In this document: positions 17,250 to 49,846 of the stretch, in pieces
Position numbering within the stretch: the stretch's first letter is position 1
How the letters are laid out: every line of letters begins with the position of its first letter
NCBI GenBank assembly: GCA_004321885.1
Contig: SCQK01000013.1
Location: forward strand, 1-64,000
From: Patescibacteria group bacterium
Lineage (GTDB): Bacteria; Patescibacteriota; Patescibacteriia; Magasanikbacterales; GWA2-37-8
Length of the DNA: 64,000 nt
Direction: 5' to 3'
Translations under genes and position numbers: made by a program
The notes under the pieces: generated by a model
Seen by the model: only the letters and a program-made list of their open reading frames with translations
Databases searched by the model: none
Told to the model about the DNA's origin: nothing

Positions 17250-18209
17250 ATGGCGGTTAACACCAAAGCAATTAAGCGCCGCATCAAATCCGTGGGCAGT
17301 ACGCGCAAGATCACGAAAGCCATGGAGATGGTAGCCGCGGCCAAAATGCGCAAAGCTGTGAACGCGGCTTTGGACACCCGCGCCTATGCCAAACTGGCCT
17401 GGGACTTGCTTGTTGATTTGGCGAAATCGCAAAAGGCAAAGATCCCGTTGTTGGACGTGCGGCCCGTGAAAAAACTTTTAGTGGTGCTTATCACTTCCAA
17501 CCGCGGGTTGTGCGGCAGTTTCAACGCCAATATTATCCGCAAAACCGCCGAGCAATTGAAAAATCCGGCCAACATCAGCCGACAGCGGGTAAAAGGCAAA
17601 CAAGTTGAGCCCGAGCAAAGCATTGAAGTGGATATTATCGGCATCGGCAAAAAAGGCGCGGATTTCGCGCGCAAAACCGGCCATCATTTGGAGGCGTCAT
17701 TTTCCGAATTCAGCGACACGCCCGCCATGGCCGACGCCCTGCCCATCAGCCGGATGATTATCGGCGATTACGAAAACAAAAAGTACGATAAAGTGGTGGT
17801 GGCTTACACTGATTTCAAATCCACCATCGCGCAAATAGCCAAGTTGCGACAAGTACTGCCGATTTCCGAACAGGATTTGGAGAAGATGATGATTGACAGT
17901 GAAGTCATTGCGAGCGAAGCGAAGCAATCCCAAACACAAACGCTGGAACTCTCTGAATACTTATTTGAACCGAACAAACTTGATGTTTTGAAAATAATTT
18001 TACCGCGTCTGGTGGAAGTGCAGATTTTTCAAGCCATGCTGGAATCGGCGGCTAGCGAACACAGCAGTCGCATGCTCGCTATGAGAAACGCCAGCGACGC
18101 GGCCGAGGACATGATTAAAGAATTAAATTTGAATTTTAACAAAGCGCGGCAGGCGGCGATCACGCAGGAAATCGCGGAAATCGCTGGCGGCGCCGCGGCA
18201 TTGGATTAA
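17250..18209 (+). CDS. atpG: F0F1 ATP synthase subunit gamma, carrying an in-frame 'GTCATTGCGAGCGAAGCGAAGCAATCC' element
   Basis: N-terminal 'IKRRIKSVGSTRKITKAMEMVAAAKMRKA' and C-terminal 'ITQEIAEI'. The repeat at 17904-17931 encodes 'EVIASEAKQSQ'. Confidence 0.9.
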   Translation: MAVNTKAIKRRIKSVGSTRKITKAMEMVAAAKMRKAVNAALDTRAYAKLAWDLLVDLAKSQKAKIPLLDVRPVKKLLVVLITSNRGLCGSFNANIIRKTAEQLKNPANISRQRVKGKQVEPEQSIEVDIIGIGKKGADFARKTGHHLEASFSEFSDTPAMADALPISRMIIGDYENKKYDKVVVAYTDFKSTIAQIAKLRQVLPISEQDLEKMMIDSEVIASEAKQSQTQTLELSEYLFEPNKLDVLKIILPRLVEVQIFQAMLESAASEHSSRMLAMRNASDAAEDMIKELNLNFNKARQAAITQEIAEIAGGAAALD

Positions 18210-18212
18210 TTT

Positions 18213-20664
<2,452 letters not shown>

Positions 20665-45837: not shown

Positions 45838-46575
45838 TCAGCCGCGCGAACTTATCAATAAATATGTAAATCTTATAGTCGCGTTAAAGATACGTTCAAA
45901 CCGTCGCGGCTGCGTCAACAACCGGTACATCCATTCTAACCCAACTTTACGCATCAGTAAAGGCGCGCGCTTTACTTTTCCAGAAAGATAATCAAAGGCC
46001 CCGCCCACGCCCATGGCTATTTTTACCGACGGCATTTTTGACAAATTTTCGTGTATCCATTTTTCCTGTTTGCCCATCCCAAAAGCGACAAAGAGAATAT
46101 CCGGCCGTGATTGATTAATTAGTTGAATCGTTGAATTGTCAACTGATTGGAAATTCTCGCTAATAGCCGGTCCCTTATCGCACCCTGCTATTTTCAAATT
46201 CGGAAACTGTTGTTTCAAATTTTCCGCCGCTTTTCTGACAACTTCGTCCTCACCGGAGCCGAGCAAATACACGCTCCTCCCCTCTTCGGCCGCCACTTGA
46301 CACAACTCCAGCATAAAATTCGCGCCGGTGATGCGCGGCGCTTTTGTCCCTGCTAAACGGCAAGCCAACGCCAATCCAAACCCATCGCACAAGTTCAAAT
46401 CGCCAGCGTTCAAAATATTTTTAAAATTTTCATCTTTTTGCGCCTTCACCGCCATCTCGGGATTGGGCGTAAATATCTTGTGCTGCTTGCCTATCAAGTC
46501 ACGCAAAAACTCACGCGCCCTCTCGCGCGCTCCTTCCAAATCCATCTCATCAACTTTCACTCCCAAAATCATCAT
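45838..46575 (-). CDS. WecB/TagA/CpsF-family glycosyltransferase
   Basis: N-terminal 'ILGVKVDEMDLEGARERA' and overall TagA-like pattern. Confidence 0.7.
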   Translation of the reverse strand: MMILGVKVDEMDLEGARERAREFLRDLIGKQHKIFTPNPEMAVKAQKDENFKNILNAGDLNLCDGFGLALACRLAGTKAPRITGANFMLELCQVAAEEGRSVYLLGSGEDEVVRKAAENLKQQFPNLKIAGCDKGPAISENFQSVDNSTIQLINQSRPDILFVAFGMGKQEKWIHENLSKMPSVKIAMGVGGAFDYLSGKVKRAPLLMRKVGLEWMYRLLTQPRRFERIFNATIRFTYLLISSRG

Positions 46576-47126
46576 GGGGTCAGCTTAAAAGTTTGTAAAA
46601 TATTGTAAACCGGACCGGCCGGCGCGAGTTCGCTTTCTATCAGCTCTATTTTATCCGCGAGCCAGTTAATTTTTTCTATTGGCATGGCGGCAAGCCCGTT
46701 CGGATTATTCCATTCTCGCTTCACTCTGCCCAATGTAATGTGCGGCCGCCAAATATGGTCTTCAAATTCCAGCCCCAAGGCAAATAATTTTTCTTCCAGA
46801 TCTTTATGCAACTTCGCGCAGTCGCGTTTTTCCTCGGCCGCGGCGCAAACCAGCACTTTTGGCCGGTTCAAGTCGGGAAAACCGTCCAGTGAATCAAGCC
46901 AAATTGAAAATCCGGGGCGTTTGGCCGCCTCGTCCAGGACTTTTTTTACTTGTTCCGCCTGCCCGTCTGTGATATCGCCCAAAAAAGCCAGCGTGATATG
47001 CATATTCTGCCGTTCTGTCCATTTTATCGGTACGCGCTCATTCAGCCGTTTTATCTCATTCTGCGCCAATTCCAACTCATTTTTGGCCTCTTCCGGCACC
47101 GGCAAGGCAATGAAAATTCGCGGCAT
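46572..47126 (-). CDS. RNA 2',3'-cyclic phosphodiesterase / 2'-5' RNA ligase (LigT/ThpR, 2H family)
   Basis: Two H-x-T/S-x motifs 'HITLAF' and 'HITLGR'. Confidence 0.8.
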   Translation of the reverse strand: MPRIFIALPVPEEAKNELELAQNEIKRLNERVPIKWTERQNMHITLAFLGDITDGQAEQVKKVLDEAAKRPGFSIWLDSLDGFPDLNRPKVLVCAAAEEKRDCAKLHKDLEEKLFALGLEFEDHIWRPHITLGRVKREWNNPNGLAAMPIEKINWLADKIELIESELAPAGPVYNILQTFKLTP

Positions 47127-47149
47127 AATTATGGTAATGATACCATATC

Positions 47150-47203
47150 TTGACAGCCCAGGACAACCCGTGCTATTATCACTCTATTAAGGAGAGTGAT
47201 AAT
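47150..47203 (+). promoter_or_regulatory. clpB promoter (TTGACA-18-TATTAT) followed by a CIRCE-like inverted repeat TTATCACTC-N9-GAGTGATAA overlapping the RBS
   Basis: Seen directly: 'ttgacagcccaggacaacccgtgctattatcactctattaaggagagtgataatATG'. The CIRCE consensus TTAGCACTC-N9-GAGTGCTAA matches at 16/18 positions with identical 9-nt spacing. Confidence 0.5.
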
Positions 47204-49846
47204 ATGATTCCCCAAAACTTCACCAATAAAGCCCAGGAAGCCATCCAAAACGCGGCCCGCATCGCCTTTGAAAACAGCGGCCAGCAAGTAGAGCCGCCGC
47301 ATGTCTTTTTTTCGCTTTTAGAGGGCTCGGAAAGCATCATCAACTCGGTTTTTGCTAAAATCAACACCAACCTCATCGCCCTGAAAGCCGAAACCCAGTC
47401 GCTGATAGACCGCCTGCCCAAACAAACCTTAAATATTCTAAGCGGCGGCCTGGGGCAAATTTTGCTTGGCCAAGGGACGCTTTATTTATTTCAAACAGCC
47501 GGCGGCGAGGCCAAAAAAATGGGAGACGAGTATATTTCATTAGAGCATCTCTTGCTCGCCTTTACCACCACCAAAAATCCGGTCAGCGACCTCTTGGCGC
47601 GCCATGGAGTGAACTATGACAAAATTATCCAGGTGCTGGCGGGCATCCGCGGCTCGCAAAAAATAGACAGCCCTGAGCCAGAAAATAAATACAATGTTTT
47701 AGAAAAATACGGCAAAAATCTCACGGCCCTGGCGGCCAAAGAAAAACTTGACCCGGTCATCGGACGCGACATTGAAATCCGCCGCGTCATGCAGATACTT
47801 TCCCGCCGCACCAAAAACAACCCGGTGCTCATCGGCGAGCCGGGCACAGGCAAAACCGCCATTGTTGAAGGGTTGGCCCAACGCATTGTGAACGGCGACG
47901 TGCCCGAATCTTTGCACAATAAAGAAATCGTGTCCCTTGATATTGGCTCGCTTTTGGCCGGCACCAAATTCCGCGGCGAATTTGAAGAGCGCCTCAAGGC
48001 CGTACTTAAAGAAATAGACAGCTCGGCCGGCAAAATCATTCTATTTATTGATGAATTACACACCATCGTCGGCGCCGGCTCTTCCGAAGGCTCGGTGGAC
48101 GCCAGCAATATGTTAAAGCCCGCTTTGTCGCGCGGCACCCTGCACGCCATCGGCGCCACCACCCTCAAAGAATACCAAAAATACATAGAAAAAGACGCAG
48201 CCCTGGAGCGCCGCTTCCAGCCGGTGCTGGTATTGGAACCGTCGCGCGACGACGCCGTCGCGATACTTCGCGGCATCAAAGAAAAATACGAAGTACATCA
48301 CGGCGTGCGCATCACCGACGCCGCCATTATTTCGGCCGTAGACCTGTCCCAGCGCTACATCACCGACCGCTTTTTGCCCGACAAGGCCATAGACCTGATA
48401 GACGAAGCCACCTCGGCCCTGCGCATGCAGATAGACTCCATGCCCGACGAGCTGGATGCCATGAAGCGCAAAATGCTGAAACTGGAAATTGAAAAGCGCG
48501 CCCTGAAAAAAGAAACCGACGAAATTTCCAAAAAACGGCTCAATGATTTGGAAAAAGAACTGGCCAACCTGAAAGAAGAAAGCTCGGCTTTGGAAGGCCG
48601 CTGGAAAAACGAAAAAGAAATCATCGGCGTGATTCACGAAAGCAAAAAAGAAATTGAGCGCTTAAAATCACAAGCCGAAATAGAAGAGCGCAGGGGTGAT
48701 TTGCAAAAAGTCGCCGAAATTCGCTATGGCCGCATTCCCGAACTGGAAACCGCCATCAAAAACAGCGAGCGCAAGCTAGTGAAAATGCAAAAAGAGCGCG
48801 GCATCTTGAAAGAAGAAGTTACGGAACAAGACATCGCCGGCGCTGTCTCGCGCTGGACTGGCATTCCGGTTTCCAAAATGCTCATGACCGAAGCGGAAAA
48901 ATTGGTCAAAATGGAAAGTGAACTGGCCAAACGGGTGGTGGGACAGGAAGAAGCGGTGGAAACTATTTCCAACGCCATTCGCCGCTCGCGCGCCGGCATC
49001 AGCGAACCCAAGCGCCCCATCGGTTCGTTTATTTTTCTCGGCCCCACCGGCGTGGGCAAAACCGAATTGGCCAAGGCCCTGGCCGAATTTATGTTTGACA
49101 CCGATGAAGCCCTGGTGCGCGTGGATATGAGCGAATATATGGAAAAACACAGTGTGAGCAAAATTATCGGCTCGCCCCCGGGCTACGTGGGCTACGAAGA
49201 AGGCGGACAGCTGACCGAGGTCGTCCGCCGCCGCCCCTACGCCGTGGTCTTGTTTGACGAAATAGAAAAAGCCCACCCGGACGTATTTAATATTTTGTTG
49301 CAAATTTTGGATGACGGAAAAGTAACCGACTCCAAAGGCCGCGCCGTGAACTTCAAAAACACCATCATCATCATGACCAGCAATGTGGGCAGTGAAATGA
49401 TTTTAGACTTCAAGAAACGCGGGGAATTCGGCTTTGCCGAAGAAGCGAAGCCTGGTAAAAAAGACAAACAGGACGAAAAGAAAATTGAAGAAAAAGTGCT
49501 GGAAGCCCTACGCGGCCAATTCAAACCGGAATTTTTAAACCGCGTGGATGATATCGTGATTTTCCATTCCCTCGGGCAAAAACAAATCGCGAAAATAATT
49601 GAGATGCAATTGAATGAATTGCAGGAACGGCTAAGCGAACAACGTATCACTCTAAAAATAGATGAGGCGGCCAAAAAACATTTAGCGCAAAAGGGCTTTA
49701 ACCCCGACTATGGCGCCCGCCCCTTAAAGCGCGTGATTCAAACCGAACTGATGAATCTTTTATCTCTTCGCATTATTGAAGGAAAAATAAAAGACGGCCA
49801 AACCGTCAAAATCTCCGCCGACAAAGGCGCCATTGTCATCGCCTAA
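47204..49846 (+). CDS. clpB: Chaperone disaggregase ClpB
   Basis: N-domain '[13 protein letters not shown]', two AAA+ modules ('GEPGTGKTA', 'GPTGVGKTE'), long middle coiled coil. Confidence 0.95.

Follow-up and report, generated by a model that had tools for sequence, protein, structure and literature searches.

What controls clpB in this Patescibacteria group bacterium, in which an inverted repeat lies immediately before the start codon? The initial annotation had read the repeat as CIRCE-like and had suggested either repression of the HrcA type or control by an mRNA hairpin. CIRCE, TTAGCACTC-N9-GAGTGCTAA, is the bacterial heat-shock operator of the HrcA repressor, and in Bacillus subtilis, as in most other bacteria, CIRCE sites are found at hrcA-grpE-dnaK-dnaJ and at groESL. 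The window (the whole stretch of 64,000 nt that was analyzed) was searched for the repeat, for promoters and for heat-shock genes, and the repeat was then followed in relatives. From these comparisons of sequence, the repeat is very probably a CIRCE operator to which HrcA would bind, repressing clpB by promoter occlusion and releasing it on heating.

Promoter and inverted repeat upstream of clpB

The features of the locus, with strand and basis, are as follows.

46572-47126, minus strand, divergent from clpB: LigT-like phosphoesterase gene upstream of clpB (ATG at 47126)
47150-47155, plus strand: -35 hexamer TTGACA of the clpB promoter (sequence read and promoter scan; also conserved in relatives)
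47171-47179, plus strand: TG-extended -10 element, TGcTATTAT (promoter scan 11/12, TG present)
47174-47179, plus strand: -10 hexamer TATTAT, its last 4 nt being the first 4 nt of the putative operator
47176-47184, no strand: left half-site of the putative CIRCE, TTATCACTC (canonical TTAGCACTC; sequence and pattern search)
47185-47193, no strand: 9-nt spacer tattaagga between the half-sites (sequence read)
47189-47194, plus strand: Shine-Dalgarno sequence AAGGAG, 9 nt before the clpB ATG (read directly from sequence)
47194-47202, no strand: right half-site of the putative CIRCE, GAGTGATAA (canonical GAGTGCTAA; sequence and pattern search)
47204-49846, plus strand: clpB coding sequence, 880 aa, the putatively regulated gene (TIGR03346, 1277.6 bits against a cutoff of 1232.1; Pfam)

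The clpB promoter has an 18-nt spacer between TTGACA and TATTAT, with a TG at 47171-47172 inside the spacer. The near-consensus promoter TTGACA-18-TATTAT of the initial annotation was borne out both by the sequence and by the 11/12 score in the promoter scan, which returned 5 promoter-like sites in a 500-nt region against 0.6 expected. Given the position of the -10 hexamer and the usual -10-to-start distance of ~7 nt, transcription of clpB is predicted to start at ~47185-47187, within the operator spacer and thus inside the repeat.

The repeat TTATCACTC-N9-GAGTGATAA spans 47176-47202, and the clpB ATG at 47204 lies 1 nt beyond its right arm. Compared with canonical CIRCE, it is identical at 16/18 positions with the same 9-nt spacing, as originally claimed, and its two deviations are symmetric (G4T and C24A). 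Pattern search of the 64 kb agreed: the clpB repeat had 0 mismatches to the variant and 2 to canonical CIRCE, and it was the sole site at ≤3 mismatches to either (0.01 and 0.03 sites expected by chance). Two details of placement stood in part. The repeat had been put directly after the promoter, and it does lie downstream of the -35 hexamer, but its first 4 nt are the last 4 nt of the -10 hexamer. Likewise, the ribosome-binding site had been assigned to the downstream arm; the overlap is real, but AAGGAG is not wholly inside the arm, since most of it falls in the operator spacer and only its final base is the first base of the right arm.

ClpB of the window carries the Pfam domains Clp_N, AAA, AAA_lid_9, AAA_2 and ClpB_D2-small, and from residue 1 onward its N-terminus lines up with those of 80 relatives. 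A TTG at 47150 as the start of an 898-aa open reading frame was rejected; these bases belong to the -35 hexamer, and the alignment with relatives begins at the ATG at 47204. Because the LigT-like gene is divergent, the 77-nt intergenic region contains all of the clpB control elements seen. Candidate promoters of the LigT-like gene stand back-to-back with the clpB promoter (47128-47166, minus strand), either TTGTCC-18-TATCAT with TG or CTGTCA-17-CATAAT; either would leave the mRNA almost without a leader (roughly 4-10 nt), and a 6-4-6 palindrome, ATGGTAatgaTACCAT (47131-47146), coincides with them. The promoter scan placed a candidate -35 hexamer of the divergent LigT-WecG-gltX promoter at 47161-47166 (minus strand). 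HrcA at 47176-47202 might also affect this divergent promoter, which we regard as a minor possibility.

Searches of the window by tblastn with 22 HrcA homologues, GroES, DnaK, Hsp20 and ClpP gave no significant match, and no hrcA was seen by Pfam annotation of ~50 open reading frames, in agreement with the initial annotation, which had reported no hrcA gene in the window. Neither a second CIRCE-like site (≤3 mismatches) nor another chaperone gene was found in the 64 kb. Apart from clpB, the Pfam-annotated frames were housekeeping genes only (ATP synthase, aminoacyl-tRNA synthetases, MreBC/PBP2, cell-wall enzymes, PriA, Def/Fmt and others). Rfam (gathering threshold) and tRNA scans of the whole 64-kb window gave no Rfam family and no tRNA gene. 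A 358-aa open reading frame with no Pfam match at E ≤ 1e-8 (18213-19289, plus strand) was observed between the genes for ATP synthase gamma (17250-18209) and beta (19297-20664), two genes that are normally adjacent.

Conservation and spread of the repeat in relatives

Relatives' clpB loci (80 metagenome-contig loci, 51-73% identity) were fetched with the N-terminal 200 aa of window ClpB only, the repeat not being used in choosing them, and the 76/80 loci with ≥200 nt of upstream sequence were analyzed. A perfect TTA[G/T]CACTC-N9-GAGTG[A/C]TAA was present ≤200 nt from the ATG in 71/76. Among the 5/76 loci without a perfect repeat, three had 1-2 mismatches (L171, L189 and L190) and two had none (L137 and L157); CIRCE control of clpB is therefore not universal in the clade. 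The repeats of L171, L189 and L190 look decayed, and at L137 (5900-5940) and L157 a GC-rich hairpin (tctccctc-tcgggcag-agggaga) was observed ~60 nt before the clpB ATG, with no obvious promoter.

Statistics of arms and promoters were taken over n = 71 sites (70 relatives and the window). With the clpB sites aligned on the repeat, the arms held 1.93 bit/position of information, compared with 0.35 for the spacer and 0.26 for the flanks. The arms were near-invariant except at position 4 (G/T) and its mirror, position 24 (C/A), and the spacer was fixed at 9 nt in length and free in sequence. A near-consensus TTGACA was found ~25-36 nt upstream of the repeat across the 71 sites. In 43/71, the distance to the repeat is 29 nt from the first base of TTGACA and 7 nt from that of a TG-extended -10 element, so that the hexamer (-7 to -2) abuts the repeat; at the remaining sites, the window included, the -10 element starts 13 to 2 nt before the repeat. 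A -10 element overlapping the repeat as in the window (start at -2) occurred at 9/71 sites. The predicted transcription start thus falls in the left arm in most relatives, compared with the spacer in the window.

The distance from repeat to ATG is 8-167 nt in relatives as against 1 nt in the window. This distance is extreme, and the overlap with the ribosome-binding site is therefore particular to this locus rather than conserved. The clpB leaders of L123-L148 mostly have no recognizable Shine-Dalgarno sequence, compared with the strong AAGGAG embedded in the operator of the window; L122 has the same 'aagga' at the spacer end, with the ATG 31 nt further on.

The spellings of positions 4/24 (n = 71) were T/A in 51, T/C in 10, G/A in 8 and G/C in 2, against 50.7, 10.3, 8.3 and 1.7 expected under independence (Fisher p = 0.67). 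The lineage consensus at clpB sites has T at position 4 in 86% and A at the mirror position in 83%; L123 and L201 have a fully canonical G/C CIRCE at clpB. Variant and canonical CIRCE are interchangeable in the clade, mixed sites included. The operator before clpB in the window carries the lineage-typical variant of one base per arm and is a real but ordinary CIRCE.

The exact 18-nt repeat was scanned in one genome per species (185,579 species), giving at least 120 loci against ~9 estimated by chance under uniform composition (596 Gb / 4^18). The first open reading frame on either side of each repeat was extracted, these were clustered, and cluster identities were then checked. Chaperone, protease or hrcA genes adjoin the repeat in 108/120 of the loci listed (groES 48, clpB 24, hrcA 22, hsp20 8, dnaK 4, clpP 2). 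Most of the loci listed are from Patescibacteria/CPR MAGs (Magasanikbacteria, Peribacteria, Saccharibacteria, Nomurabacteria, Komeilibacteria and others), and a minority are from Rhodobacteraceae, Salinibacter/Salinivenus and Peptoniphilaceae/Helcococcus.

The same MAG carried the repeat at two heat-shock genes in several cases: at clpB and hrcA in CAZHYG01 and JAZDMW01, at clpB and groES in JABIGQ01 and CAZEYR01, at hrcA and groES in LBTN01, JACKFN01, CAZTEU01 and CAZMEW01, and at clpB and hsp20 in JAAYXY01. For CAZHYG01, both copies are on a single contig (CAZHYG010000001.1), at clpB (L008) and at hrcA (L028); the clpB of L008 is among the closest to window clpB in the matches listed (73% nucleotide identity). 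The repeat also stands before hsp20 (PF00011) at 8 loci (L016, L029, L031, L060, L063, L078, L081 and L092) and before clpP at L051 (2-28) and L066 (2593-2619; PF00574, E = 3e-80), so that the CIRCE regulon in these lineages seems wider than groE and dnaK. The initial annotation had proposed that hrcA, and the same repeat at groE and dnaK, be sought in the genome; in relatives, both were found, the repeat lying at groES, hrcA-grpE-dnaK, hsp20, dnaK and clpP.

Several further observations were made on these loci. The T/A spelling was seen upstream of groES in Rhodobacteraceae (L003, L056, L058, L087, L102, L105, L108, L112 and L114), Salinibacter/Salinivenus (L012, L024, L050 and L113) and Helcococcus (L069 and L080). 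Being found in a few non-CPR lineages, the T/A variant is not exclusive to genomes with the short HrcA described below. In TPA MAG records titled 'uncultured Gammaproteobacteria' (L001, L002, L008, L019, L030 and others) and in one titled 'Candidatus Udaeobacter', clpB, hrcA or groES is nearest to the Magasanikbacteria type, and the titles of those records look taxonomically wrong. The gltX-WecG-clpB synteny of the window is shared by L005. Judged from the naming of the nearest ClpB and HrcA loci and from synteny, the DNA of the window probably comes from a Patescibacteria lineage resembling Magasanikbacteria.

The HrcA homologue of relatives

At the 22 of 120 listed loci with hrcA, the homologue lies directly behind the repeat and is ~226 aa long (e.g., L028:6959-7639, minus strand; L064, L038 and L097); it is referred to here as mini-HrcA. 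On CAZHYG010000001.1 (L028), the order is repeat, hrcA (226 aa), grpE, a 335-aa open reading frame and dnaK. The 335-aa frame (L028:5410-6417, minus strand), which separates grpE from dnaK in this operon, has no Pfam match.

Mini-HrcA has a winged helix and a GAF-like domain. Against TIGR00331 it scored E = 2e-48 and 165 bits, compared with an equivalog cutoff of 197, the score being below the cutoff because the proteins are short; against PF01628 it scored 60 bits (gathering threshold 22). A phmmer search of the PDB returned only Thermotoga maritima HrcA (1STZ, E = 1.8e-17), aligned over residues 2-77 in the winged helix, the alignment including the conserved ATxRNE...PHTSAGRIPT motif. An AlphaFold2 model of mini-HrcA was built from 50 homologues (pLDDT 92.5, pTM 0.88). 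Its top PDB match was 1stz_A (E = 4.8e-13; TM 0.81 by query, 0.58 by target), with 327 alignment columns for 226 versus 323 residues. From the TM scores and alignment columns, ~100 residues of canonical HrcA are absent from mini-HrcA, and these we take to be most likely the inserted dimerizing domain of 1STZ. This insert reportedly mediates dimerization in HrcA. On its profile matches and predicted fold, mini-HrcA is best described as an HrcA homologue with a truncated architecture, and its dimerization on the inverted repeat is put forward only as a proposal.

The mini-HrcA family had at least 7,958 database matches at E ≤ 1e-5. Among the 120 matches listed (P0001-P0120), length was 219-244 aa and hosts were typically Magasanikbacteria or Patescibacteria; NCBI names these proteins mostly 'hypothetical protein' and JGI 'heat-inducible transcriptional repressor'. 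That the organism of the window would have such an HrcA repressor is deduced from relatives at ≤73% identity.

Mode of control, known systems and implications

Control of clpB by an HrcA-type repressor, as had been suggested initially, was supported by the 71/76 conservation at clpB, by the same repeat at heat-shock genes and by the adjacent hrcA homologue. Three other readings of the repeat were weighed against it. In the mRNA hairpin also named in the initial annotation, the repeat would act as an RNA thermometer or stability element that sequesters the Shine-Dalgarno sequence and start region and melts when hot, allowing clpB to be translated. A 46-nt stretch indeed folds to a 12-bp stem (-13.8 kcal/mol, z = -4.2) with the Shine-Dalgarno sequence in the loop and 3' arm, and in the window only 1 nt separates the repeat from the ATG. 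However, the only good promoter puts the start at ~47185-47187, in the spacer, and the left arm would then be untranscribed; a read-through transcript over the repeat is unlikely because the upstream gene is divergent. Nor do relatives fit a hairpin, in that their repeats lie 8-167 nt from the ATG, usually touching no Shine-Dalgarno sequence, and U·C or G·A mismatches occur at 18/71 sites, exactly the frequency expected without selection for pairing (p = 0.67). No Rfam match was found anywhere in the window. G/T on the left and C/A on the right vary independently, and two protein half-sites are therefore favored over an RNA hairpin; independent drift of half-sites is as expected if a dimeric protein that accepts either G or T binds the DNA. 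With the predicted start inside the repeat and no compensatory covariation (Fisher p = 0.67), hairpin control of clpB was not borne out and is very unlikely. The 1-nt distance between operator and ATG in the window leaves an additional local effect on translation as a minor possibility.

It is also very unlikely that the repeat is the operator of another regulator (HspR, CtsR or an uncharacterized CPR factor) and merely resembles CIRCE. This reading would accord with a window that has no hrcA, and clpB of Campylobacter/Helicobacter is under HspR, not HrcA (PMC8533110). Against it, the HAIR sequence CTTGAGT-N7-ACTCAAG had 0 matches in the window at ≤3 mismatches, and the 17 weak matches of the CtsR direct repeat RGTCAAANANRGTCAAA in the window included none in 47100-47210. 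In sequence the half-sites are CIRCE half-sites, and among relatives there is a gradation up to the fully canonical form (L123 and L201); besides chaperones, the gene most common behind the repeat is the HrcA homologue heading hrcA-grpE-dnaK, the classic autoregulated layout. A functionless palindrome, produced by the chance overlap of an AT-rich -10 box with a purine-rich ribosome-binding site, would draw on the fact that the -10 hexamer supplies part of the left arm and the Shine-Dalgarno sequence part of the spacer and right arm anyway. Only 0.01-0.03 such sites are expected per window, however, the arms hold 1.93 bit/position in relatives whose -10 hexamer and Shine-Dalgarno sequence lie clear of them, and 108/120 of the exact copies listed flank chaperone, protease or hrcA genes. 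Chance was refuted by these comparative data, and its probability is negligible.

The repeat lies on a vegetative promoter of the sigma-70 type, and for the repression of clpB by HrcA from this operator the following course is proposed. At normal temperature, an HrcA dimer, in this lineage of the ~226-aa mini form, would sit on the two half-sites, thereby covering the -10 hexamer and the start of transcription as well as ~17 nt at the beginning of the transcribed region. RNA polymerase would then form no productive complex at the covered promoter, and clpB would be kept low. Since a protein on the repeat would cover the -10 hexamer, the start and the initial transcribed region, the geometry is that of classical promoter occlusion. 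Under heat or protein-folding stress, HrcA would lose DNA binding and clpB would be transcribed, induced together with groESL, hrcA-grpE-dnaK, hsp20 and others carrying the same operator. Loss of DNA binding by HrcA has been described when unfolded proteins titrate GroEL/ES, or when HrcA itself unfolds or is thermolabile (PMC8533110 and Mogk et al., 1997, cited there).

The system shares with CIRCE/HrcA of B. subtilis the 9-bp arms, the 9-nt spacer and 16/18 bases, a location on a vegetative promoter or immediately downstream of one and, in relatives, sites before groES and before an autoregulated hrcA-grpE-dnaK operon. It differs in that position 4 and its mirror have other consensus bases in this lineage, the repeat extends in relatives to clpB, hsp20 and clpP, HrcA of relatives is ~226 aa compared with ~340 aa for canonical HrcA, and the window operator overlaps both the -10 hexamer and the Shine-Dalgarno sequence. 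As in Mollicutes, the genome is reduced and HrcA/CIRCE is extended to clpB, apparently as the main or only dedicated heat-shock regulator (PMC4245973); unlike Mollicutes, the lineage of the window belongs to a different phylum. In Mycoplasma gallisepticum, CIRCE was reported upstream of clpB, lon and dnaK, from a scan with the canonical G/C spelling that allowed ≤2 mismatches (PMC4245973).

Mini-HrcA resembles T. maritima HrcA (1STZ) in the winged helix and predicted overall fold, whereas ~100 residues of 1STZ have no counterpart. The short HrcA of Helicobacter/Campylobacter (NF003033, a 264-position profile) is, like mini-HrcA, shorter than the canonical form; the winged helix of mini-HrcA matches this profile (E = 6e-19 to 7e-22), over the N-terminal ~95 residues only. 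HAIR/HspR and the CtsR box are likewise repressor operators on chaperone and Clp promoters, but differ from the clpB repeat in sequence and geometry.

In the open-access literature, no paper was found that linked HrcA/CIRCE to CPR or described a streamlined HrcA system of Patescibacteria. Open-access matches to HrcA with Patescibacteria or Saccharibacteria were only passing mentions on unrelated topics. For TTATCACTC in the same literature, none were found together with HrcA, and for the sequence alone no heat-shock paper was among the matches listed. The inference of CIRCE for CPR is straightforward, and some annotation pipelines already name the protein HrcA.

The clpB operator itself poses no challenge to current understanding. 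With it, clpB receives a confident regulatory annotation in a lineage that is uncultured and genome-reduced and in which regulation has hardly been studied. Throughout Patescibacteria, the heat-shock regulon is recovered by one simple pattern, TTAKCACTC-N9-GAGTGMTAA. A broader proposal, which we hold to be evenly balanced between true and false, is that the entire protein-quality-control response of Patescibacteria is governed by a streamlined HrcA system combining mini-HrcA, a shifted CIRCE and a widened regulon. Such a system may consist of a ~226-aa mini-HrcA without the inserted dimerizing domain, acting on the CIRCE consensus TTATCACTC-N9-GAGTGATAA, and its regulon may take in clpB, hsp20 and clpP besides groESL and hrcA-grpE-dnaK. 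If this is true, dimerization on the operator, and possibly sensing of GroEL, would differ from the Bacillus/Thermotoga model. Mini-HrcA is the more useful lead, as a natural minimal HrcA with which to ask what parts a repressor of this family needs in order to dimerize and to sense the chaperonin.
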